A stretch of DNA of 64,000 nt, taken from the NCBI RefSeq assembly GCF_019683595.1, contig NZ_JADGHZ010000001.1, positions 7,314 through 71,313 on the forward strand, written 5' to 3'. The stretch's first letter is position 1; each line of letters opens with the position of its first letter. Below the pieces are notes generated by a model. The model was given only the letters and a program-made list of their open reading frames with translations, made no database searches and was not told the DNA's origin. Shown here piece by piece: positions 1 through 30,183 of this stretch. This DNA is from Sphaerobacter sp. (GTDB taxonomy: Bacteria > Chloroflexota > Chloroflexia > Thermomicrobiales > Thermomicrobiaceae). Position numbers and translations under genes: made by a program.

Positions 1-807
1 TTGCTCGACCCCGAGCAGCGGCGCAACCCCGACCCAGGTGCCGTGAGCCGCGCCGCGGCCGAAGCCACCTCGTTGATCCTCAGCGCCCTGGTCGACCAGC
101 TCGATCCCGAGATACCGGCCGTGCTCCTCGCGCACCTGAGTATCGAGGGTGCGCGCCTGGGGTCGGAGCAGTCGATCATGCTCGGTGAGGATCTGGTGCT
201 CGACACGGACGAGCTGCGCGTGCGCGCCTTCGACTACGTGGCGCTGGGCCATATCCACCAGCACCAGTTGATCACGGCGCGCCCGCCAACCGTCTACGCC
301 GGAAGCCTGGAGCGCATCGACTTCGGGGAAGAACGCGAGGACAAGGGGTTCGTCCTGGTCGACATCCAGCCCGGCCCCGCCGGGGAACGACGTGTCGAAT
401 GGACGTTCCAGCCGGTCCGGTCACGCCCCTTCGTGACCCTACGGATCAAGGCGGTGCATGAGGATCCGATGGTCGATGTCGAGCGCGAGATCGAGCAGCG
501 CGCCGCCGATCTAGACGGGGCGATCGTCCGCGCCTTCATCGCGGTGCCGCCCGAGCGGGAGGAGCTGCTGCGCATCGACGAGGTGCGCCGGATGCTCCTC
601 CAGAGCGGCGCCGCCTACGTCGCAAAGGTCGTGCGTGACGTCGACCTCCAGGTCCGTCCTCGCATCGAGTTGCGCGACCACGAGACCCTCGACCCCGTGG
701 CCGCGCTCGAAAAGTGGCTCTCCCTCCGCGACCTCACCGAGAACCAGCGCCGCCGCATCCTCGAAGCCGGCAAGGCCCTCATCCAGGCCGAGCGGGATGG
801 GGAGTGA
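1..807 (+). CDS. sbcD: SbcD/Mre11-family nuclease, C-terminal part (5' end cut by window edge)
   Basis: The ORF runs from the window edge. It has the metallophosphoesterase His motif ALGHIHQHQ followed by YAGSLERIDFGEE and an SbcD-type C-terminal domain. GC3 is high. Confidence 0.6.
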   Translation: MLDPEQRRNPDPGAVSRAAAEATSLILSALVDQLDPEIPAVLLAHLSIEGARLGSEQSIMLGEDLVLDTDELRVRAFDYVALGHIHQHQLITARPPTVYAGSLERIDFGEEREDKGFVLVDIQPGPAGERRVEWTFQPVRSRPFVTLRIKAVHEDPMVDVEREIEQRAADLDGAIVRAFIAVPPEREELLRIDEVRRMLLQSGAAYVAKVVRDVDLQVRPRIELRDHETLDPVAALEKWLSLRDLTENQRRRILEAGKALIQAERDGE

Positions 808-810
808 GGC

Positions 811-934
811 GTGATTCGTCATGCGTCATACGTCCCCCTCACCCCCGACCCCTTCTCACGAGGGAAGAGGGGAGAAGGGCTGAATACCGAACGCTGAAGA
901 CGTTTGACGCATGACGCATGACGTATTACGTCAC
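811..934. repeat. Intergenic palindromic repeat, family A, copy 1: (GCGTCAT)n arm, G/C-rich core, (ATGACGC)n arm
   Basis: The left arm is tcgtcat gcgtcat acgtc. The core is ccccctcacccccgaccccttctcacgagggaagaggggagaaggg. The right arm is tgacgc atgacgc atgacgt attacgt. It fills the gap between convergent sbcD and the peptidase gene, and is near-identical to the reverse complement of 13694-13828. Confidence 0.8.
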
Positions 935-2928
935 AGATACCGCTGGAACCACCCCAGGATGTACTGAAGGCGCTCCACCCGGTGCTTGGGTTTGCCGCTG
1001 CGCGAGAGGTTGTGGTTCTCGTTCGGGAAGCGGACGAACTCCACCTCCCGCCCCAGCTTCTTCAGGGAAATGAACAACTGCTCGGCCTGCGCGATCGGGC
1101 AGCGGTAGTCCTCCTCGCTGTGGATGATGAGCAGCGGCGTCTTCATGTTCTCGACGTAGGTGATCGGTGACAGGCGCACGTAGGTCTCCCGCGCCTCCCA
1201 CGGCACCCCGCCCCACTCGTACGCGCCGAAGTGGAACCCGATGTCGCTGGTGCCGAAGAAGCTGTAGAGGTCAGACACGCAGCGCTGTGTGACGGCCGCC
1301 TTGAAGCGGTCAGTGTGACCGATCACCCAGTTGGTCATGTAGCCGCCGTACGAGCCGCCGGTGACGCCCAAACGGTTGGGATCGACGTAGCCCTGCTCGA
1401 TGACGTAGTCGACGGCCGCCATGAGGTCCGGCATGTCCTTCTCACCCCAGGCGGCGCGGGTGTAGGAGGCGTACTCCGTGCCGTATCCCTGGCTGCCCCG
1501 CGGGTTGGTGTACACCACGACGTACCCCTGAGCCGCAAGGAGCTGGAACTCATGGAAGTAGTGGTTGGCGTACATCCCGTGCGGCCCGCCATGGATCTCC
1601 AGCACCATCGGGTATTTCCGGCCCGGCTCGAAGCCGATCGGCTTCATCACCCAGCCGTGAATCTCCGCCCGGTCTTCCGCGTGGCTCGGAACCCGGAACT
1701 CCTCCGGCTCGCTGAGCGCGACCGAGCTGAAGAACTCCTCATTGACCGCCGTCAGCCGCCGCTCGTCGGAGCCGTTCGCGCGGCAGACGTACACGTCGCA
1801 CGGGTTGAGCGGGTCGCCCGCCACAAAGGCGATACGGCTACCGTCCGGGCTCACGCTGAAGTCGAGCACCCGCCGCTGGCCGCCGACCACGAGGGACGGA
1901 TCGCCGCCCGCAGCCGGCACGCGGTACACGTGCGTGTTCCCGCTGTCGCTCACCTGGAAGTAGATCCAACCATCGGGAGTCCAGGCGAGGCCGGGGTTCG
2001 CCGGAGCGCACGTGTCGTTGATGCCGGCGTCGCCAACCGTGCGCCCGAGCCCCTCGGTGAGGCACCGGATCGTTCCACCGTCAGCGACCCACACCTGGGA
2101 GTCGATGGCGCCGCCCGACTCCGGCTGACGATGCCCCGCAAAGGCGATCGCCGCGCCGTCGACCGACCACACGGGCCGGCCGAAGTCGGCATCGTTACCC
2201 GTCGCGATCGGCCGCGCCTCGCCTCCACGGGCTGGGACCGCCCAGATCTCGCTCACCGTGTTGAACTCGCGGTCCTCCGTGCGGTTGGAGACGAAGGCGA
2301 TCTCGTGCCCACCGGGGGACCACACGGGCCAGGCGTCGTTGAAATCACCTGACGTCACCTGCCACGGGTCGCCGCCCGCCGCCGGGACGCACCAGATGTG
2401 CGTGTGCTTGTCGTCGAGGAAGCCCGAGACGCCGTCGGCGCGGAAGCGGATGCGGGTGATCCGCACTACGTCGCTTTTCTCCTCCTCGCCCTCATCCTCG
2501 TCACGCTTCTCGAGTTGGGCTGCCTCGGTCTTGCTCACCAGGGCCAGGGTCGAGCCGTCCGGCGACCAGGCAAAAAAGGTCACGCCCTCGGGAAGATCCG
2601 TGACCTGCGTCGCCTCGCCACCATCGACCGAGATGGTCCAGACCTGAGACTTGCCGGATCGGTTCGAGAGGAACGCGATCCGCGACCCATCGGGCGACCA
2701 GCGCGGGAAACTATCCCGCGCGTCGGCGGACGTGAACCGGCGCGGCGTGCCACCATCGACTGGCACCACGAAAATCGACGATCGGTAGTCGTTCTTCTCC
2801 TTGTCGAGGATCGTCTGTGTGTAGGCGACGTATCGGCCATCGGGGGAGATCTGTGCGTCGCTAACCAGCGTGATGTTGTAGATATCCTCCGGGGTCAGGC
2901 GACGCTTCGCACCCGTCGACGCACCCAC
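931..2928 (-). CDS. S9 family prolyl oligopeptidase / acylaminoacyl-peptidase with N-terminal TolB-like beta-propeller
   Basis: Repeated SPDG propeller motifs. Catalytic Ser motif GGSYGGYM, then C-terminal ...EEDYRCP... and NENH. A GTG at 2928 is preceded by GGAGGAGG. The track ORF extends to 2976. Confidence 0.9.
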   Translation of the reverse strand: MGASTGAKRRLTPEDIYNITLVSDAQISPDGRYVAYTQTILDKEKNDYRSSIFVVPVDGGTPRRFTSADARDSFPRWSPDGSRIAFLSNRSGKSQVWTISVDGGEATQVTDLPEGVTFFAWSPDGSTLALVSKTEAAQLEKRDEDEGEEEKSDVVRITRIRFRADGVSGFLDDKHTHIWCVPAAGGDPWQVTSGDFNDAWPVWSPGGHEIAFVSNRTEDREFNTVSEIWAVPARGGEARPIATGNDADFGRPVWSVDGAAIAFAGHRQPESGGAIDSQVWVADGGTIRCLTEGLGRTVGDAGINDTCAPANPGLAWTPDGWIYFQVSDSGNTHVYRVPAAGGDPSLVVGGQRRVLDFSVSPDGSRIAFVAGDPLNPCDVYVCRANGSDERRLTAVNEEFFSSVALSEPEEFRVPSHAEDRAEIHGWVMKPIGFEPGRKYPMVLEIHGGPHGMYANHYFHEFQLLAAQGYVVVYTNPRGSQGYGTEYASYTRAAWGEKDMPDLMAAVDYVIEQGYVDPNRLGVTGGSYGGYMTNWVIGHTDRFKAAVTQRCVSDLYSFFGTSDIGFHFGAYEWGGVPWEARETYVRLSPITYVENMKTPLLIIHSEEDYRCPIAQAEQLFISLKKLGREVEFVRFPNENHNLSRSGKPKHRVERLQYILGWFQRYL

Positions 2929-10090: not shown

Positions 10091-10096
10091 TCCTCG

Positions 10097-10447
10097 GTGG
10101 AGATGGGGGGAATCGAACCCCCGTCCAGAACCTTCAGCCGAAGATCTACTACAAGCTTAGTCGGTGTTTTGGATCCCGCGCCGAACCCCCACCGACAGGG
10201 TTTCGTCGCGGTAGTCGGATGGTCTTAGGCTGATCCTATCCGACACTCGGACCAGCAGCACCCCGGCCTTGTGGCGCCCACTCCCAACCCGCCGGGGTGG
10301 GGTCGGGGTGGACGTCGCCGCTAGTTAATTACGCGGCGAGAGCGTAAGACTCGTTGCCGTTTATGGCTTTGCCCCTTTTTACGAGTCCCGGGGCGACCTC
10401 GGCTTGCAATCCTCGCGCCTACGGCCCTGTCGAAACCAGACATCCCC
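10097..10447 (-). ncRNA. ssrA: tmRNA (SsrA)
   Basis: On the minus strand the 5' end reads GGGGAUGUCUGGUUUCGAC. The 3' end reads GGGGGUUCGAUUCCCCCCAUCUCCACC, a tRNA-Ala-like acceptor stem and T-arm with a G3:U pair. The internal tag frame is GGC AAC GAG UCU UAC GCU CUC GCC GCG UAA, giving ...NESYALAA. It is adjacent to smpB. Confidence 0.95.
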
Positions 10448-21897: not shown

Positions 21898-22959
21898 TCA
21901 CCGGTTGTCTGGCGTCTTGAGGACGGCGCGTGAGCCGTAGTTCCGCCCGTAGTACTCGGCGAAGGCCGCGTCGCGTAGCGGCTCCCACCAATCCCGGCGC
22001 TGCCGGTACCACTCGACAGTGTCGCGCAGGCCCTGCTCGAAGGGCACCTGCGGCCGCCAGCCGAGCGCGCGCAACTTCCCGGTTGCCAGGGCGTAGCGCC
22101 GGTCATGGCCCAGGCGATCCTCGACGTGCTGGATCAAGTCGTGCGGCTGCCCGAGGAGATCGAGGATCTGCCGCGCGACGTCGAGGTTCCGTCGAGGATT
22201 GCCCCCTCCGATGTTGTACGCCTCGCCTGGCTTCCCGCGGAGCAGCACCGTCTCGATCCCCGCGCAGTGGTCAAGGACGTGGATCCAGTCGCGCACCTGG
22301 AGTCCGTCGCCGTAAATCGGCAATGGCCGGCCCTCCATCGCGTTGGTGATCATCAGGGGGATGAACTTTTCAGGGTACTGGTAGGGTCCATACGTGTTCG
22401 ACCCGCGGGTGATGGTCGCCGGAACCCCGTGAGTCGCCACGGCCGCGAGAACCATCATCTCCCCCCCGGCCTTGCTCGCCGAGTAGGGGCTCCGCGGCCG
22501 GAGCGGATCCTCCTCGCGGGACTCCCCGACCGGGACGTCCCCGTAGACCTCGTCCGTGCTGACGTGGACGAAGTGGCGCACCCCGTGTTCGCGCGCCGCC
22601 TCAAGCAGGACATGCGTCCCGACCACGTTCGTGCGTAGGAAGTCGTCTGCATCCAGCAGCGAGCGGTCGACGTGGGTCTCCGCGGCGAAGTTCACCACGG
22701 CGTCGCAGTCGCGCATCGCCGCCGCGACATCGGCACGGTCGCAGATATCGGCGTGAACGAAGCGGAAACCGGGATGTCCCTCGACGTCGGCCAGGTTCGC
22801 CCGGTTCCCGGCGTAGGTCAACTTGTCGTACACCGTGACCCGCGGCACGCCGCGCTCCAGGAGGTAGCGGACAAAGTTGCTGCCGATGAACCCCGCGCCG
22901 CCGGTGACGAGCACATGCCGCAGATCGTGTCGCACGTTCCTTCTCCCCACCCAATACAT
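21898..22959 (-). CDS. rfbB: dTDP-glucose 4,6-dehydratase
   Basis: VTGGAGFIGSNF (Rossmann), the YSASKAG catalytic YxxxK, and RmlB-type length. The exact start is uncertain. Confidence 0.9.
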   Translation of the reverse strand: MYWVGRRNVRHDLRHVLVTGGAGFIGSNFVRYLLERGVPRVTVYDKLTYAGNRANLADVEGHPGFRFVHADICDRADVAAAMRDCDAVVNFAAETHVDRSLLDADDFLRTNVVGTHVLLEAAREHGVRHFVHVSTDEVYGDVPVGESREEDPLRPRSPYSASKAGGEMMVLAAVATHGVPATITRGSNTYGPYQYPEKFIPLMITNAMEGRPLPIYGDGLQVRDWIHVLDHCAGIETVLLRGKPGEAYNIGGGNPRRNLDVARQILDLLGQPHDLIQHVEDRLGHDRRYALATGKLRALGWRPQVPFEQGLRDTVEWYRQRRDWWEPLRDAAFAEYYGRNYGSRAVLKTPDNR

Positions 22960-23062
22960 AGCTGGAGCGTGTCGCTGCGCGAGAGCCTAGCAAACCCGCC
23001 GCCCGCGGGCAACGCACCGGTACGGCATAGTCCATTGGTACCGGAGTGTCGGGAGACAAGTA

Positions 23063-23091
23063 TTGACAGGGGAGTGCGAGAGTCCTATACT
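23063..23091 (+). promoter_or_regulatory. Near-consensus sigma70-type promoter TTGACA-N17-TATACT
   Basis: TTGACA at 23063-23068, an exact 17-nt spacer, and TATACT at 23086-23091. The local GC content drops here. Confidence 0.7.
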
Positions 23092-23214
23092 CGGACCAGG
23101 ACGAAAGTAATACCTGTAGGCGCCAGCGTTCAGAAACGGAACGGAATGACTGGATGTCAACTCTAGTCATCGGCGCCGGCGGGTGGAGGCCCGAGTCACG
23201 GAAGGAGCTCACCC

Positions 23215-23244
23215 GTGAAGTGGAAGAACTTCCGCTGGAAGTAG
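23215..23244 (+). CDS. Mini-ORF 1: (M)KWKNFRWK, 9 codons, double stop TAGTAG
   Basis: GAAGGAG (23201-23207) lies 7 nt upstream of the GTG. All third codon positions are G or C. Confidence 0.4.
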   Translation: MKWKNFRWK

Positions 23245-23297
23245 TAGTCGCGAACTCTCCAGGTGTGCCGTCATCAGCGAAGAAGGAGACAAGGGCC

Positions 23298-23321
23298 ATG
23301 AAGAATTTCCGCTGGAAGTAG
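23298..23321 (+). CDS. Mini-ORF 2: MKNFRWK, 7 codons
   Basis: GAAGGAG (23282-23288) lies 9 nt upstream of the ATG. The core AAG AAT TTC CGC TGG AAG TAG differs from mini-ORF 1 by one synonymous change (AAC to AAT). Confidence 0.4.
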   Translation: MKNFRWK

Positions 23322-23372
23322 CAATCAAGGACTCCACATCTGTGAGGGCGTCCAAGGAAGACCGACGCACTC

Positions 23373-23510
23373 ATGGAGTGGAAGAACTCTCGCTGGAAGT
23401 CGAGACACCGTTTCGCGGGGTCTGCCGCGCGGGCAGCCAAGGCTGGTCGGACGACCGATTCGAGTCTGGTTGCCCGCGCGTCTTTTTCGACACAGGAATG
23501 CCGGTGGTGA
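23373..23510 (+). CDS. Mini-ORF 3: MEWKNSRWK followed by a 36-codon read-through extension (TCG replaces TAG) that crosses the terminator
   Basis: AAGGAAG lies 12 nt upstream of the ATG. The extension has much more A/T at third positions than real genes here, so only the first 9 codons look selected. Confidence 0.3.
   Translation: MEWKNSRWKSRHRFAGSAARAAKAGRTTDSSLVARASFSTQECRW
23427..23487 (+). terminator. Intrinsic terminator of the mini-ORF transcript
   Basis: A 12-bp stem, gcgcgggcagcc / ggttgcccgcgc (one G-U pair), with a 29-nt loop, followed by gtcttttt. Confidence 0.6.
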
Positions 23511-23692
23511 CCAGGTGACCCAGCAGCGAGACAGTGCGACGGGGCCTCACTGGCTATCCCGCAGGCTGGCCCTCCCCGCCCGACAACCGGTAGCAACGAA
23601 TCAGTACGAACACAGTACTTTCAGACCCCGCAGGGTCGGTACTCTTGCGCCGACATGTGACCCTCTCGGTGCCCGAGACAGCGAGAATCGAC

Positions 23693-23701
23693 TGTTATAA
23701 T
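23693..23701 (+). promoter_or_regulatory. Extended -10 promoter TGtTATAAT upstream of the HD-GYP gene
   Basis: tgttataat was read directly from the sequence. I see no good -35 element. Confidence 0.45.
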
Positions 23702-23737
23702 GCCAGAGACCGTGGAGGGAACCGCCCGGTTTGGCGC

Positions 23738-25093
23738 GTGGGGAGTGAACGTGCGCCACCAGCGGGCGGCCGAGAGGGATCGGGCTTCGGGACCGTGCAA
23801 CCAGTCGATCGGGTTCGCAACGCTGTCATCGGGCTCGTCGCCGTCACCGTGACGGTGCTCCTCGTCCTGGGCCCGCTCGCCCAGCGGCCACCGCTGACCT
23901 TGGAGACGTTCTTCGTCGCTGTCGTCCTCGTCGGCCTCATCATCTTCGCTGACTTCTTCGACATCGAACTGCCGCTCTCGTCCGTTCGCATCACCGTCTC
24001 GGTTTCATCTGCCCTCTGCTTCGCGGCCGCGCTGTCGCTCGGCCCCATCGTCGGCGCGCTGATCGCTGGCGGGGCGGGGCTCTTCGTGGAGCTGGTGGAC
24101 CGGCGGCCGACCATCAAGCTGCTCACCAACGTCAGCAACTACACACTCGCCACCTTCGTCGCCGGTTGGGCCTACAGCGCGCTGGCCGACCCCACCCGCT
24201 CACCGATCGGCACCTGGAGCAATGTGACCGTGACGATCGGCGCGGCCGCCGTCTACACGACGATCGAGTCCGGGGTCATGGCGGTCATCCTCTCGCGCGC
24301 CGTCGGCACTTCACCCTGGCAGATGTGGCGCGCCAGCGCCTACGGGGTCATCCTGGAGTGGATCACGCTGCCGACGCTCGGCAGCTTGATCCCGGTCCTC
24401 GAGCGCGAGAGCCCGCTCGCCCTCATCGTCGCCGCCGTTCCCCTCGTCGGGCCGTACCTGGCCTTCCGCAGCTATCGGCAGATCCACGAGGAGACGCAGA
24501 AGACGATCGAGATGCTGGCCGATACGCTGGATCGGCGCGATCCCTATACCTCCGAGCACTCCAAGCGGGTCGCCGCCTACGTCGAAGCGATCCTGGAGCA
24601 CATGGATAACGTCCCCCTCGAAGAGGCCGAGCGCATCATCGCCGCCGCCCGGATTCACGACCTGGGCAAGGTCAGCACGCCGGACGCGACCTTGATGAAG
24701 CCGGACAAGCTCACCCCGGAGGAACGCCGGGCGATCGAGAAGCACGCCGCCGAAGGCGCGGCGATCCTGAGCAACCTGACCATGTACCGCACGGTCGCCC
24801 ACATCGTCCGGCACCACCACGAGCGCTGGGACGGCACGGGGTACCCCGACGGCCTGGCAGGAGAGGAAATCCCCTTCGGCTCGCGGGTCATCGCCGTGGC
24901 CGACACCTACGACGCCATGACCTCAGATCGAACGTACCGCCGCGCGCTTCCTCACCATGTCGCGATGGCCGAGCTACGTCGCTGCGCCGGGACCCAGTTC
25001 GACCCTGAGGTGGTCCGCGCCTTCGAGCGCGCCATGAGCGCCGCGCCTGCTGTCCGCCAGTGCCCGACGCTGGCGCCCGAAGCGAACCACTGA
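23738..25093 (+). CDS. Multi-pass membrane HD-GYP domain protein (putative c-di-GMP phosphodiesterase)
   Basis: The N-terminal half has about 7 hydrophobic helices. The C-terminal half has HDLGK and HHERWDGTGYPDGL. The start is uncertain (GTG at 23738 or GTG at 23795). The track start at 23645 lies upstream of the predicted promoter. Confidence 0.8.
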   Translation: MGSERAPPAGGREGSGFGTVQPVDRVRNAVIGLVAVTVTVLLVLGPLAQRPPLTLETFFVAVVLVGLIIFADFFDIELPLSSVRITVSVSSALCFAAALSLGPIVGALIAGGAGLFVELVDRRPTIKLLTNVSNYTLATFVAGWAYSALADPTRSPIGTWSNVTVTIGAAAVYTTIESGVMAVILSRAVGTSPWQMWRASAYGVILEWITLPTLGSLIPVLERESPLALIVAAVPLVGPYLAFRSYRQIHEETQKTIEMLADTLDRRDPYTSEHSKRVAAYVEAILEHMDNVPLEEAERIIAAARIHDLGKVSTPDATLMKPDKLTPEERRAIEKHAAEGAAILSNLTMYRTVAHIVRHHHERWDGTGYPDGLAGEEIPFGSRVIAVADTYDAMTSDRTYRRALPHHVAMAELRRCAGTQFDPEVVRAFERAMSAAPAVRQCPTLAPEANH

Positions 25094-25198: not shown

Positions 25199-25930
25199 GT
25201 GCGCTTCGACGTCTTCACCATCTTTCCCGGGATCTTTGATGGCCCGCTCGACGAGAGCATCCTGAAGCGTGCGCGCGAGCGCGGGCTGATCTCCGTCCAC
25301 CTCCACGACATCCGGGACTGGGCCACCGATCGCCACCGCTCGGTCGACGACTACCCCTACGGCGGAGGCCCGGGGATGGTCATGATGGCACCTCCCATCG
25401 TGAGCGCCGTCGAGACCGTGCTCGGCGACGAGATCGACACGACCCCGATCATCGCGCTCTCAGCGTCCGGCGAGCCCTTCAACCAGGCTGTCGCCGCGGA
25501 GCTGGCGCAGCACCCGCGCCTCGCCCTCATCTGCGGTCGGTACGAGGGGATTGACGAACGTGTCCATCTCATCCTCCGAACGCGCCAGCTCTCGATCGGC
25601 GACTACGTGCTGACCGGCGGCGAGCTCGCCGCTGCGGTCATGATCGACGTCATCGCCCGGCTCGTCCCCGGCGTGATCGACCCGGAGTCGCTGCAGGAGG
25701 AGTCCTTCACCAGCGGCTTGCTCGAGTACCCGCAATACACCAGACCGCCCGAATACCGCGGGCTCACCGTCCCGGAGATCCTCCTGAGCGGGCATCACGC
25801 GCGCATCGCGGAATGGCGCCGCCAGCAGTCCCTCTGCCGGACCCGCGCGCTGCGCCCTGATCTTCTGGAACGGGCCAACCTCACCCCGGCCGACCTGCGC
25901 CTGCTCGAACAGTGCCCGGACGAGAGCTAG
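25199..25930 (+). CDS. trmD: tRNA (guanine37-N1)-methyltransferase
   Basis: FDVFTIFPGIF...DDYPYGGGPGMVM...GRYEGIDERV...GDYVLTGGE. Confidence 0.95.
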   Translation: MRFDVFTIFPGIFDGPLDESILKRARERGLISVHLHDIRDWATDRHRSVDDYPYGGGPGMVMMAPPIVSAVETVLGDEIDTTPIIALSASGEPFNQAVAAELAQHPRLALICGRYEGIDERVHLILRTRQLSIGDYVLTGGELAAAVMIDVIARLVPGVIDPESLQEESFTSGLLEYPQYTRPPEYRGLTVPEILLSGHHARIAEWRRQQSLCRTRALRPDLLERANLTPADLRLLEQCPDES

Positions 25931-26023: not shown

Positions 26024-26758
<735 letters not shown>

Positions 26759-26852
26759 CCACCACCGCAGCGATCCGGCCGGAACCCTGGTAAGCTACCG
26801 TCGGCGCGGCCGCGCGCCGCCGGTGGTGATGGTGGCCTCGGGAAGCGAGTCG

Positions 26853-29195
26853 ATGCGACTCCTGTTGACCAAGGCACTCCGCGATATCCAGCGGCGTCCC
26901 CTCCGGACGCTCCTGACGACGCTCGGCGTGCTCCTGGGCGTCGCCGGGGTCGTCGCCATCTCCTACACCGGGCGCAGCCTGGCCGACGCCCAGCGTGAGA
27001 CGTACGCCAACACCCGCCAGCCGGACATCACCGCCTTCGCGGCGCAGCTCTCACCGACGCTGGTCGACCTAATCGGGCGCCGGGACAACGTCGTCGCCGT
27101 TGATACGCAGGCGGTCCAGATCACCCGCGCCAGCACCGGCGACCGCTGGGTCAACACCCGCCTGGTCGGGGTGGCAGATTTCACCAACATGCGGCTCGAC
27201 GCGGTGCAACTCGTCTCCGGCCGCTTCCCCGGTCCCGGCGAGATCGCCTTCGACGCCAGCGCCACCAAGCTGATCGATGTGGAGGTCGGTGACCTCGTCG
27301 CGCTCCAGCCGACGCCGGCCTCCCCGATCAACTACGCCCGCGTCAGCGGCTTCGTGCGCGCCCCGGCCACCATCGACGCCTCGATTCTCAACCAGGCCAC
27401 GGCCTACATGCCGGCTCGCGACGTGCGCCAGATCCTGGGGCGACGTTACGACAACTACCTGCTGGTCCGCGTGGCCGAACCCCAGCGCGCCTCGGAGACC
27501 GCCGACCAGATCCGCGCCTTTCTCGACAAGCGTGGCGTCACGTCGAGCAATTTCACCGTTCGCGACCCGAACGTGTTCACCGGAAGTCGCGAGCTGGGCA
27601 CGCTGCTCCTCCTGCTGGAAGTGTTCTCGGTCGTCGGGGCCCTGCTCAGCACGTTCCTGGTGGCCAACACCATCGCCGCCATCATGGTCGAGGAGACCCG
27701 GCAGGTCGGCATCATCAAAGCGCTCGGCGGCACACGCTGGGCGGCGATGCGCCCGTACCTCTTCTTCGCCCTCACCATCGGCATCACGGGCGCCGTTCTC
27801 GGCTGGGTCATCGGCTTGGTCGGTGGGCAGTTATTGACGGGCTATCTCGCCGGGCTGGCGGGCCTGGTGTTGCCAGGCTTCAGCCCGGCGTTGCGCGAGC
27901 TGGTCCTGGCGCTCCTGGTCGGGATCGGCGTCACGCTCGGCGCAGCCGTCCTCCCGGCCGCCCTGGCGACTCGTCAGGCGGTCGCGGAACTCCTGGCGCA
28001 GCGCGGCGTCGTCGCCGACTTCCACCGCGGCATCACCCAGAGTCTGACCGGCTCCCTCGCCCGCGTCGGCATCGTGGCGACCATGGGCCTGCGCAACCTC
28101 GCACGCCGACCGGCGCGGGCCTGGGTGACCCTCACCGTCGTGGCGGTGGCCGTGGCCGCCTTCCTCGGCACCCAGGCAGTGAGCCGCTCCGTGACCCTGA
28201 CGGTCGACCACCTCTACGACCTCTACGGCGCCGACGGCTGGATCTTCTTCAACCGCCCGGTGCGCCCGGAGTTCGCGACCACCCTTGAGCAACACCCGGA
28301 CGTGCGGCAAGCCGAGCCCTGGGCGAACGCCACCGCGTCCATTGGGTCGGTACGAACCGACGTCTGGGGCATGCCGCGCAACACCGACATCTACACCCCG
28401 CGTGTCATCGCGGGAACCTGGCTGCGCCCGGCCAACCCAACCGGCGCGGTGCTGACGAGCAACCTCGCCCGCGCCATCGGCGCATCAGTCGGCGACGTCC
28501 TCACCCTGGATATCGGGGATCGATCCAGCCTCGTTCAGGTGCTCGGTATCGTGGACGACGAGAGCACCTACCTGGGAGCGGCGACGACCGGGAAAGTCTT
28601 CCTCGACGTCGCGGATGCTCAGCGCATCATCGGCTCAGGCGGCCGGGCCACGGTCTTCGCCCTCACACTCCAGTCCTCCCAACCCGCCGCCGTCGATGCG
28701 AGCCTGACCCGGCTGGAGGAGAGGTTCCGCCAGTACGCCCCAGTGACGCTGGCGATGTATCAAGATCAGGCTAGCTCGCGGCGGGCCATTGACATCCTGA
28801 CGGTGATGCTGAACGCCATGGTGATCATCGTCAGCGCGGTCGGGCTGGCGGGGATTGTCAACACCCTGCTCATCAACCTCACCGAGCGGCGCCGGGAGTA
28901 CGGCATCCTCCGCGCGATCGGCGCCACCGGGCGTCACCTCGTGCGTCTGGTCATGTCGGAGGCGCTCGGGCTGACGGCTGCCGGCTGCGCGGTCGGCGTT
29001 GCGGTGGGATACCCGCTGGCGCGCTATCTGGTGCATCTGACCGGTACCCAGCTCTTCGGGCTGGAGTTCCACCTGGGCCCGGTCACCATCGCCGCCACCA
29101 TCCTGGTCGCGCTCATCGCCACGGCCGCGGTGAGCACCGCGCCCGGGTTGTTGGCTTCTCGCATTCGACCGATACAGGTGCTGCGCTATGAATAG
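26853..29195 (+). CDS. ABC transporter permease, double FtsX/MacB-type (two 4-TM FtsX modules with large extracytoplasmic domains)
   Basis: MRLLLTKALRDIQRRPLRTLLTTLGV is a typical FtsX-family N-terminus. A second FtsX module lies near the C-terminus (GILRAIGATGRHL). An alternative ATG is at 26829. Confidence 0.85.
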   Translation: MRLLLTKALRDIQRRPLRTLLTTLGVLLGVAGVVAISYTGRSLADAQRETYANTRQPDITAFAAQLSPTLVDLIGRRDNVVAVDTQAVQITRASTGDRWVNTRLVGVADFTNMRLDAVQLVSGRFPGPGEIAFDASATKLIDVEVGDLVALQPTPASPINYARVSGFVRAPATIDASILNQATAYMPARDVRQILGRRYDNYLLVRVAEPQRASETADQIRAFLDKRGVTSSNFTVRDPNVFTGSRELGTLLLLLEVFSVVGALLSTFLVANTIAAIMVEETRQVGIIKALGGTRWAAMRPYLFFALTIGITGAVLGWVIGLVGGQLLTGYLAGLAGLVLPGFSPALRELVLALLVGIGVTLGAAVLPAALATRQAVAELLAQRGVVADFHRGITQSLTGSLARVGIVATMGLRNLARRPARAWVTLTVVAVAVAAFLGTQAVSRSVTLTVDHLYDLYGADGWIFFNRPVRPEFATTLEQHPDVRQAEPWANATASIGSVRTDVWGMPRNTDIYTPRVIAGTWLRPANPTGAVLTSNLARAIGASVGDVLTLDIGDRSSLVQVLGIVDDESTYLGAATTGKVFLDVADAQRIIGSGGRATVFALTLQSSQPAAVDASLTRLEERFRQYAPVTLAMYQDQASSRRAIDILTVMLNAMVIIVSAVGLAGIVNTLLINLTERRREYGILRAIGATGRHLVRLVMSEALGLTAAGCAVGVAVGYPLARYLVHLTGTQLFGLEFHLGPVTIAATILVALIATAAVSTAPGLLASRIRPIQVLRYE

Positions 29196-30183
29196 ACGAC
29201 CGGTTCGACGGCTCATCCTCGTTGTGGTGGGGGTGCTGGTGGTTGCCGCGGTGGTCGCCGGGTTCCTGCTGGCAACCCGCCCCGAGCCACAAACCGCCGT
29301 CGTCGAGCGAGGCAGCCTGGAGGCGACGATTGAGACCGTCGGCCGCCTCGTGCCGCGCAATTCGATCACGGTCCGCAGCCCGGTCAGCGGCAAGGTCCAA
29401 ATCGTTGCCGTCTCCCCCGGCGACGCGGTGGAAGAAGGCGACGTTCTCGTCCAGCTCGACCCCAAGCCGTTCGAGGAGGCGATCCGCCGCGCCGAGGAAC
29501 AGGTGGACGCCGCCGAGGCCGCGCTGAACCTCGCCGAGCAGCGAGCCGGCGACAACCCGTCCCCCGAGCAGCTCGCGGCCCGGCTCACGGCCGAGCAGCA
29601 GCTTCGCGACGCTCAGCGTGCCCTCGACGACGCCCGCGCGGCGCGCGACGCAGCGATGATCCTGGCCCCACGCGCCGGGACGGTGCTCCAGGTGCAGACG
29701 GCCGAAGGTGCCCCGTTGGGGACAGGCGCCGAAGTGGCCCAGATCGCCGACCTGAACGACCTCGAACTCCAGGTCGACCTCGACGAAATCGACCTGCCGC
29801 ACGTCCCACCCGACGCGCCGGTGACCTTCACTCTGGACGCCTACCCCAGCGACGAGATCGAGGGACGCCTGGAACGGATCTCGCCCACGGCCGAGACGAG
29901 CGGCGGAACTACGACGTTCCGCGCTACCGTGCGCTTCACCCTCCCCGAGGGGCTGGTAGCCCGTCCGGGCATGAACGCTGATGTCTCGATCAAGACCGCC
30001 GTCCGCTCCGACGTGCTCCTGATCCCCGAGAGCGCGCTTCGCACCGTGGGACGCCGCACCTTCGTGACCGTCCTCGTGGACGGCCAGGAGCAGGAGCGAG
30101 AGATCCGGATCGGCCTCCGAAGCGGCGGCATGGTCGAGGTCGCGTCCGGGTTGACCGAGGGCGAGCGGGTGGTCATTCCCTAG
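29188..30183 (+). CDS. HlyD/MacA-type periplasmic adaptor (membrane fusion) protein
   Basis: N-terminal TM helix, a lipoyl-like motif (VSGKVQIVAVSPGDAVEEGDVLVQLD), a coiled-coil region and beta-barrel domains. It overlaps the permease stop by 8 nt. Confidence 0.85.
   Translation: MNRRPVRRLILVVVGVLVVAAVVAGFLLATRPEPQTAVVERGSLEATIETVGRLVPRNSITVRSPVSGKVQIVAVSPGDAVEEGDVLVQLDPKPFEEAIRRAEEQVDAAEAALNLAEQRAGDNPSPEQLAARLTAEQQLRDAQRALDDARAARDAAMILAPRAGTVLQVQTAEGAPLGTGAEVAQIADLNDLELQVDLDEIDLPHVPPDAPVTFTLDAYPSDEIEGRLERISPTAETSGGTTTFRATVRFTLPEGLVARPGMNADVSIKTAVRSDVLLIPESALRTVGRRTFVTVLVDGQEQEREIRIGLRSGGMVEVASGLTEGERVVIP

Follow-up and report, generated by a model that had tools for sequence, protein, structure and literature searches.

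Genes of 4 to 9 codons escape annotation, and very few functional genes this small are known, namely mccA and bytA. The 7-codon mccA gene, which has its own terminator, yields an abundant, ribosome-bound short transcript with minor read-through (PMC4231749), and its peptide is constrained in length and used in formylated form (PMC6495379). Likewise, the 5-codon bytA gene is translated into product (PMC12002111), and its aromatic-rich peptide, encoded below gene-caller size, was recognised only via a conserved neighbour (PMC12002111, PMC13417212). Here, we analysed a 64,000-nucleotide (nt) stretch of Sphaerobacter sp. DNA (contig NZ_JADGHZ010000001.1, positions 7,314 to 71,313; henceforth, the window) that carries, upstream of a gene for a membrane HD-GYP cyclic di-GMP (c-di-GMP) phosphodiesterase, a cassette of three tandem micro-open reading frames (micro-ORFs), each led by a Shine-Dalgarno sequence (SD). 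As judged by comparison with related genomes, this array is a real, previously undescribed kind of element whose biochemical role is putative.

Three micro-ORFs in the Sphaerobacter window and its close relatives

The cassette is divergent from rmlB (dTDP-glucose-dehydratase-like; 21898-22959, minus strand) and is made up of the following features:

23063-23091, plus strand: sigma-70-type promoter, TTGACA-N17-TATACT
23098-23199, plus strand: structured 5' leader, with a helix GGCGCC (23119-23124) / GGCGCC (23172-23177) and two hairpins inside it
23200-23207, plus strand: SD 1, GGAAGGAG, displayed in a hairpin loop
23215-23244, plus strand: micro-ORF 1, GTG start, second TAG at 23245-23247, encoding (M)KWKNFRWK
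23267-23278, plus strand: spacer-1 block GCCGTCATCAGC, an island of identity within a scrambled spacer
23282-23288, plus strand: SD 2, GAAGGAG
23298-23321, plus strand: micro-ORF 2, ATG AAG AAT TTC CGC TGG AAG TAG, encoding MKNFRWK
23354-23360, plus strand: SD 3, AAGGAAG, 12 nt before the start codon (weak spacing)
23373-23510, plus strand: micro-ORF 3, ATG at 23373, MEWKNSRWK followed by TCG, TGA at 23508-23510, 45 amino acids (aa)
23426-23488, plus strand: intrinsic terminator, a 14-bp outer stem with an inner hairpin, then UCUUUUUC

Micro-ORF 1 reads GTG AAG TGG AAG AAC TTC CGC TGG AAG TAG TAG (23215-23247), and the starts of ORFs 1 to 3 lie 83 nt and 75 nt apart. The window contains three occurrences of the 18-nt core shared by the ORFs, all of them within the cassette, the expectation from shuffled sequence being 0.02. 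The Sphaerobacter peptides are Trp-rich and carry a charge of +4.

We aligned the cassette across four species, i.e., the window species, Sphaerobacter sp. Bu17 (L077), L130/L126, and L128. Invariant columns made up 97% of ORF1, 92% of ORF2, and 57% of ORF3, whereas the two inter-ORF spacers were invariant at only 33% and 18% of columns. More specifically, the start of ORF1 alternates between GTG and ATG among the four species, the stops alternate between TAG and TAA within the ORFs of close relatives, and the codons inside them undergo silent swaps (AAC/AAT, TTC/TTT, AAG/AAA, and CGC/CGT). The 9-residue and 7-residue forms of the peptide differ by exactly two codons, with TGG giving way to ATG in frame. 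ORF3 is the labile copy: it encodes MKWKNFRWK, MMRKNVRWK, or MKNFRWK in relatives, and in the window, where ORF1 and ORF2 are intact, a TCG occupies the position at which relatives have their stop, such that the frame continues through the terminator to the TGA. By this comparison, ORF3 of the window is a degenerating copy that has lost its stop.

Several searches bear on how widely the cassette occurs at this level of relatedness. An identical locus was present in six metagenome contigs (L001-L006), which we accordingly assign to the same species. A codon-degenerate scan of metagenomes gave eight matches, four of which were real, representing two new species (one found on two contigs) and the window's own species; the other four were chance matches in AT-rich coding DNA. 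A two-copy DNA pattern scan of genome contigs returned mostly chance hits among the matches listed, the informative one being L077, and plasmid sequences searched with the cassette DNA and the HD-GYP protein gave no match.

The signals that flank the micro-ORFs are those of a short transcription unit. The promoter matches the consensus at 11 of 12 positions and is the sole match of our promoter scan within 3 kb (shuffled sequence gives 0.3); its segment is invariant at 72% of columns in the four-species alignment, and a TTGACA-like -35 element with 17-nt spacing was found again in 15 related loci. About 115 nt of leader, 56% of which is invariant, separate the promoter from ORF1. Its fold, in which a hairpin ATGACT/AGTCAT sits within the GGCGCC/GGCGCC helix, was recovered as conserved by RNAalifold across the four species, with weak, almost absent covariation, and its UGUCAA loop and GAGUCAC block also occur in the Nitrolancea-type clade. 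A riboswitch was considered as one candidate reading of this leader. The terminator pairs two arms of 14 nt (23426-23439 and 23467-23480), directly followed by UCUUUUUC, and its hairpin has a free energy of -50.4 kcal/mol (z = -5.2); a simple terminator scan overlooked it because its loop is long. Equivalent hairpins with U-tracts are present in L130, L134, and L141.

The initial annotation, drawn from the letters of the window, had described this promoter, the leader fold, three SD-led modules with these spacings and readings, and the terminator, and each of these descriptions was borne out (with SD 1 reading GGAAGGAG). Two of its counts required correction: the three cores hold five rather than six Trp codons, the sixth lying at the end of the ORF3 run-on, and the gap between rmlB and the HD-GYP gene, given as 780 nt, spans 685 nt to the TTG of a long ORF or 835 nt to the GTG at 23795.

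Two further sequence blocks were noted in the untranslated parts of these transcripts. The spacer-1 block GCCGTCATCAGC is invariant in the four Sphaerobacter-type species, has a similar counterpart in L134, and resembles GTCATCGGC of the leader. In addition, a 3' hairpin of the form CCCGAAUUUCGAC...GUCGAAGUUCGGG lies at 2203-2258 of L134 and ~60-170 nt past the last micro-ORF of L138, L140, L141, and L143, and is accompanied by a U-tract in most of these five loci. Its sequence, which differs from that of the window terminator, is kept across clades with scrambled spacers and exceeds what a terminator requires.

Other readings of the gap were discarded. A 55-aa gene called by JGI in L001-L006 (23154-23321, plus strand), which ends in ...MKNFRWK and is the sole annotation call here, is spurious: it has no Pfam match, its frame is broken by a TAG in the L130 species, and the call is an artefact of read-through from the conserved ATGTCAA element of the leader. 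Similarly, a 331-aa minus-strand ORF (22601-23596) and the other long ORFs of the gap have no Pfam match, and their frames are closed in relatives. An Rfam search of the whole window at the gathering threshold found only the transfer-messenger RNA (tmRNA) gene (RF00023, 194 bits; 10095-10447, minus strand), which is away from the cassette, and a permissive Rfam scan of 22900-23800 yielded only chance-level matches (E = 0.19-3.8), far under gathering scores.

An order-wide family paired with a membrane HD-GYP gene

The association that proves decisive, and that the initial annotation lacked, is with the HD-GYP gene immediately downstream. Distant loci were collected by searching with the HD-GYP protein and then inspecting the genomic context of graded homologues; the counts given below cover the 15 distinct loci recovered, all of which are from the order Thermomicrobiales. 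These loci span Sphaerobacter, Nitrolancea, Thermorudis, and Thermomicrobium, as well as uncultured lineages, and all 15 carry 1 to 10 tandem SD-led micro-ORFs of 4 to 18 codons directly upstream of a membrane HD-GYP gene. In each of the 15, at least one SD-led micro-ORF ends in W-[K/R]-(x)-stop, as compared to a background for this search of 2 per 112 kb of flanking DNA and 0 in the rest of the 64-kb window. The general form of the family is M-x-W ... W-[K/R]-(x)-stop, with the SD spaced normally from the start codon and a frequent N-terminal M-x-W; the sole universal feature of the peptides is a Trp-Lys or Trp-Arg pair, directly before the stop or up to three codons away from it. Representative peptides are as follows:

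L134 (HD-GYP protein 70% identical to that of the window): MKWKNFKWK, MSKNFKWK (TTG start), and MSSKNFKWK
L136 (Thermomicrobiaceae metagenome-assembled genome): MKLKNFKWK
L138 and L141 (Nitrolancea-type): MKWK and MFKWK
L140 and L143 (clade of L138 and L141): MLGWR or MIGWR
L139 (Thermomicrobium sp. 4228-Ro): MKWKSWKLR
L142 (Thermorudis peleae): MKWKSWKWG
L145 (JGI metagenome): MKWKYWKWR, three copies
L144 (lineage B, uncultured Thermomicrobiales): five 18-codon ORFs of the type MTWDARSENRFDGATWKS
L146/L149 (lineage B, uncultured Thermomicrobiales): ten ORFs, six of which encode MTWDSATWK

Variation within this family follows the code. Starts alternate among ATG, GTG, and TTG across relatives, and indels comprise whole codons only. 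In L134, CGC is replaced by AAG (Arg to Lys) in all three copies, and L138 and L141 differ by AAA/AAG, ATG/GTG, and TAG/TAA swaps. Most of the nucleotide sites that vary among the five copies in L144 are third codon positions. The six MTWDSATWK copies of L146/L149 share 91% nucleotide identity, compared to 31-35% for their flanks, and the differences among them are all silent, including serine codons of both families (TCC/AGC). Since the spacers have diverged while the ORFs are invariant and vary silently, the peptide or its translation is under selection; i.e., the pattern of change shows that what is maintained is the set of reading frames with their encoded peptide (or the act of translating it) rather than an RNA fold. 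The same had been suspected from the copies within the window, and the homologues agree, retaining frames, SDs, and peptides with synonymous variation and whole-codon indels.

Stop codons are also biased. The 37 micro-ORFs of the window, L077, and L128-L146 end in TAG (21) or TAA (16) and never in TGA, the commonest stop among the long genes of the window (17 of 33). TGA may be avoided because efficient or RF1-specific termination is selected for, or because the sequence is constrained.

On this comparative evidence, we consider the tandem Trp-Lys micro-gene arrays to be a previously undescribed family. A literature search found nothing relevant containing KNFRWK or MKWK peptide sequences and no paper linking small ORFs to HD-GYP, consistent with the earlier remark that no described bacterial family looks like this. 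With purifying selection on the peptides throughout the order, copy numbers that vary, and a partner gene that does not, the arrays are one of the cleanest comparative cases for functional bacterial micro-genes.

The partner gene and the sites around the two promoters are as follows:

23020-23041, unstranded: inverted GTAC-containing repeat, ACCGGTAC...GTACCGG, just 5' of the cassette promoter, a possible operator
23604, 23615, and 23639 (23604-23642), unstranded: three GTAC motifs 5' of the HD-GYP promoter, a possible operator shared with the cassette promoter
23693-23701, plus strand: extended -10 element of the HD-GYP gene, TGTTATAAT
23795-25093, plus strand: membrane HD-GYP c-di-GMP phosphodiesterase, 432 aa, with canonical HD...HHExxDGxGYP motifs

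The HD-GYP gene most likely starts at GTG 23795, as supported by homologues of 429-437 aa, leaving a 5' untranslated region of ~95 nt after the TGTTATAAT promoter; a 482-aa ORF that begins at TTG 23645 overextends the gene (23645-23794). In lineage A, i.e., the gene context to which the window belongs, the HD-GYP promoter lies ~200 nt past the terminator, and its TG(C/T)TATAAT element is conserved in the four aligned Sphaerobacter-type loci and present in most other lineage A gaps.

The AlphaFold model of the HD-GYP protein has a mean pLDDT of 81. The modelled C-terminal half matches solved HD-GYP phosphodiesterases (best PDB match 4r8z, E = 2.5e-10), and the N-terminal half, with 6-7 predicted transmembrane helices, matches the S-components RibU, FolT, BioY, and ThiT (target TM-scores of 0.65-0.73). 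S-components are membrane proteins that bind small ligands. Pfam gave borderline matches to ECF-ribofla_trS (26.9 bits) and MASE9 (23.7 bits), and the predicted sensor domain thus looks like an ECF S-component of the MASE9 type. MASE9 has been described as a membrane sensor domain that occurs in HD-GYP proteins and has no identified ligand (bioRxiv 10.1101/2021.11.05.467447).

GTAC motifs recur at both promoters. The GTAC/AGTACT elements are spaced by ~15 and 30 nt at the micro-ORF promoter and by 8 and 15 nt at the HD-GYP promoter, and the GTAC triplet with 8/15-nt spacing is conserved in Nitrolancea-type loci. Clusters occupy equivalent positions in L138 (1753-1798 and 2294-2317), L141, L140, and L143. 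GTAC density is 6-12 per kb in nine of ten lineage A gaps (3.9 in L142) and 1.5-2.8 outside them; the clusters are absent from lineage B gaps. From their placement, they may constitute an operator for a shared regulator.

The flanking genes define two arrangements. In lineage A, the order is SpoIIE-rmlB / array / HD-GYP-(HAD)-TrmD-(Transgly_assoc)-ABC; in lineage B, which comprises uncultured Thermomicrobiales with longer arrays and HD-GYP proteins 45-51% identical to that of the window, it is GGDEF-EAL or radical SAM / array / HD-GYP / convergent MFS. The HD-GYP gene, with which the array is always co-oriented and which it always directly precedes, is the sole conserved neighbour; as far as gene order tells, the pairing persists through complete turnover of the flanking genes.

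With regard to the remaining neighbours, TrmD (tRNA m1G37 methyltransferase; 25199-25930 in the window) follows HD-GYP in all lineage A loci and stands outside any ribosomal-protein operon there, with a HAD hydrolase gene before it or a Transgly_assoc gene after it in several loci. None of the ten ORFs between 19.4 and 31.0 kb of the window is a P450, ThiF/MccB-like, radical SAM/SPASM, ATP-grasp, or protease gene. A MacB/FtsX/HlyD system is present at 26024-30183, as the initial annotation had stated, but such an exporter is not conserved beside the array across loci: in L139 and L142, the next gene after that for the ABC ATPase is convergent and encodes a solute-binding protein, no FtsX-type permease gene being called behind it, and lineage B has an MFS gene instead. 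L146 alone, among lineage B loci, has a 301-aa radical SAM gene (37-942, minus strand) divergent from and beside its ten-ORF array; it may encode a maturase specific to that lineage, or its presence may be coincidental.

Weighing the possible functions of the arrays

Taken as a whole, the observations are best explained by a high-output micropeptide transcript acting with the adjacent HD-GYP, a reading that we give a probability of roughly 0.55. For the element itself, the sequence comparisons make a polycistronic micropeptide RNA the best-supported reading. It had headed the hypotheses of the initial annotation and stands, without the cationic, RW-type composition (as of antimicrobial or nucleic-acid-binding peptides) then attached to it, which proved specific to the Sphaerobacter lineage (MTWDSATWK is net neutral). 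The cassette looks like a high-output expression unit because it combines a consensus promoter, a 5' stem-loop, strong SDs, TAA/TAG stops, a strong terminator, and variable copy number, and we lean towards the locus being an independently transcribed, high-output short mRNA of ~390 nt that carries three SD-led micro-ORFs. In this scheme, the micro-ORFs would be translated in bulk, with copy number serving as a dosage device, and the terminator would keep peptide mRNA well in excess of partner mRNA, as happens with mccA. The product would then be free, probably N-formylated Trp-Lys peptides, for which we see slightly better than even chances.

What the peptides would do is more speculative. They may act on the adjacent HD-GYP as its cognate ligand or regulator, a tentative proposal made by analogy that we hold at well under even odds; the HD-GYP is favoured as target or receptor because of the fixed adjacency and because its S-component-like sensor has a fold that binds small ligands. 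If so, the membrane domain would sense the peptides, coupling a self-made peptide signal to c-di-GMP hydrolysis. The more general proposal, that ribosomal peptides of 4 to 9 residues are native ligands of the MASE9-type sensor and constitute a self-produced signal wired to c-di-GMP turnover, is a little less likely again. Were the peptides ligands, this would be a new type of peptide signalling and the first ligand for this sensor class, and the micro-ORFs would rank with the smallest bacterial genes known to be functional. The fixed pairing, in any case, offers a handle on MASE9/S-component-like c-di-GMP sensors.

Several points weigh against this explanation. The case for transcription, translation, and peptide accumulation is a purely comparative one, and the 15 loci, being from one order, are phylogenetically linked. 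The 4-9-residue peptides have no export signal, no exporter is conserved beside the array, and MKWK, with 4 residues, would make a very small specific ligand. The arrays could also be paired with HD-GYP for cis-regulation instead of as product and partner; adjacency by itself does not prove a ligand-receptor relation, and the ligand step draws solely on adjacency and fold analogy. Neither a terminator nor a sigma-70-type promoter was found in the array-gene interval of lineage B. Finally, the loss of the stop from ORF3 of the window and the single copy retained in some species make the dosage argument soft.

The main competitor, which we regard as distinctly less probable than a micropeptide transcript though by no means negligible, is a translation-sensing leader (attenuator). 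Here, the micro-ORFs would be cis-acting sensors controlling HD-GYP expression: ribosome progress at the stop-proximal Trp would report Trp-tRNA, free Trp, RF1 activity, or a ribosome-targeting compound and set read-through or stability of the transcript into HD-GYP, with the peptide being a by-product or an arrest peptide. The position of the array, co-oriented with and directly upstream of HD-GYP in every locus, suits such a sensor, but a sensor would not need as many as 10 separately SD-led copies. Trp is the sole universal residue, located 1-4 codons before stops that are TAG or TAA only, both of which RF1 reads; nevertheless, the Trp codons are single, without runs, and spread over up to 10 ORFs, and residues other than Trp are under purifying selection, e.g., in MTWDSATWK (Ser TCC/AGC) and KNF[R/K]WK. 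A strong terminator does separate array and gene in lineage A, and ORF3 of the window traverses it, yet no antiterminator alternative overlapping an ORF is evident in the folds, and lineage A HD-GYP keeps its separate, conserved extended -10 element ~200 nt past the terminator. In lineage B, we detected no terminator or promoter between array and gene, which likewise speaks for a leader. The downstream gene is, however, not a Trp gene: no gene of Trp biosynthesis or catabolism was found there, the genes being those for HD-GYP, TrmD, and an ABC transporter. If the array were a translational sensor, it would be a new type of leader.

Less likely by some distance is that the micro-ORFs encode a minimal ribosomally synthesised and post-translationally modified peptide or antimicrobial, i.e., leaderless precursors modified by an enzyme encoded elsewhere (Lys-Trp crosslinking or nucleotidylation) or cationic antimicrobials exported by the MacB-type pump. 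Tiny precursor genes exist (PMC4231749, PMC12002111), and the mcc layout of precursor gene, terminator, and partner gene resembles that of the cassette, but the sole conserved neighbour here is a canonical HD-GYP, and the ten ORFs at 19.4-31.0 kb include no maturase-type or protease gene. The candidates at hand for modification and export, namely the divergent radical SAM gene beside the array in L146 and the MacB/FtsX/HlyD system of the window, are both unconserved across loci. The +4, Trp-rich character of the Sphaerobacter peptides would befit an antimicrobial, but the lineage B peptide is net neutral. A C-terminal Asn is absent throughout the family, and the K-x3-W spacing is not a family-wide feature. 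For the K-x3-W crosslink raised by the initial annotation, the accompanying remark that no maturase is adjacent agrees with our scan of those ten ORFs, but the spacing itself is missing from MKWK, MFKWK, and MTWDSATWK.

We consider it very improbable that the arrays are macrolide-type +x+ arrest leaders, in which drug-bound ribosomes would stall at KWK, RWK, or KLK, as happens on ErmDL, with induction of downstream genes, including MacB-type efflux, as the result. K/R-x-K/R motifs are indeed present in the window (KWK and RWK) and in lineage A peptides, and MKWK presumably resembles the minimal MRLR form of ErmDL. Stalling at such motifs, as first proposed, nonetheless fails as a family-wide explanation, the motif being absent from MTWDSATWK, MLGWR, and MIGWR, and elsewhere the middle residue is nearly always Trp, which goes beyond what the +x+ rule requires. 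There is a MacB-type pump downstream in the window, but the adjacent gene is an HD-GYP with its own promoter, TrmD separates HD-GYP from the pump, and the FtsX permease is not conserved downstream. Masking of an SD or start of the ErmDL class is likewise not seen, as a terminator, ~200 nt, and a separate promoter precede HD-GYP, which is not a resistance gene.

An equally remote alternative, a non-coding RNA whose repeats are RNA motifs (GGA-rich CsrA-type sponge sites or ACUUCC-GCU-GGAAGU hairpins) and whose frames are incidental, could draw on 13 GGA triplets in about 230 nt (counted by eye), small hairpins drawable within ORF1 and ORF2, and the conserved non-coding blocks of the leader and 3' hairpin, but the ORF-internal hairpins are insignificant (z = -2.0 and -0.7) and are broken by silent changes (AAG to AAA, AGC serine copies), the base changes seen are silent and not compensatory, the start, stop, and SD persist even as their sequences change, indels come in threes, and there is no Rfam match.

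Comparison with known systems

Leader peptides such as trpL, tnaC, and ermDL come from tiny SD-led ORFs that precede, in the same orientation, the gene that they regulate. The arrays share this layout, along with Trp or +x+ features. In contrast, the known leader ORFs are single, are embedded within terminator/antiterminator or SD-sequestering structures, and regulate Trp-metabolism or resistance genes. Sponge RNAs of the CsrB/RsmZ type are GGA-rich, as is the cassette, but variation in the cassette follows codon logic.

Pheromone cassettes (RRNPP, Agr, and ComCDE) yield peptides that are cut from longer precursors with export signals and are received by TPR regulators or histidine kinases. 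The arrays resemble them in that a small peptide gene stands beside a candidate sensor gene (in all 15 loci and in two gene contexts) and in that the peptide differs between lineages. We know of no pheromone encoded as a 4-9-codon ORF, and of none paired with HD-GYP.

Tandem coding of near-identical peptides has other precedents. In insects, tal/pri carries tandem ORFs for the same 10-12 aa motif on one transcript, and the peptide is the active product; tal/pri is eukaryotic, however, and its translation mechanism and target (Ubr3/Shavenbaby processing) are unrelated. PSM-alpha and leaderless bacteriocin operons produce, from a short polycistronic mRNA with several SD-led small ORFs, near-identical formylated leaderless peptides. 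The cassette, too, places tandem SD-led small ORFs on one short transcript, but the products of those operons are amphipathic helices of 20-45 aa with dedicated ABC exporters, whereas the arrays encode 4-18 aa, have no conserved exporter, and are linked to a c-di-GMP enzyme.

Among single micro-genes, bytA is partnered with a cytochrome P450 that crosslinks aromatic side chains and does not occur in tandem; no P450 was found among the ten ORFs of the window neighbourhood. mccA is a single-copy gene, and MccB, encoded next to it, adenylates its peptide, which has a C-terminal Asn (no MccB-like/ThiF domain was found among the same ten ORFs), while the Thermomicrobiales arrays have 1 to 10 copies, a C-terminus of Trp-Lys/Arg, and a membrane HD-GYP as partner. 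Known analogues thus each share only single features with the arrays, and the closest mechanistic precedent is mccA, with which the cassette has in common an SD-led ORF of ~7 codons, its own promoter, and an intrinsic terminator before the partner gene.

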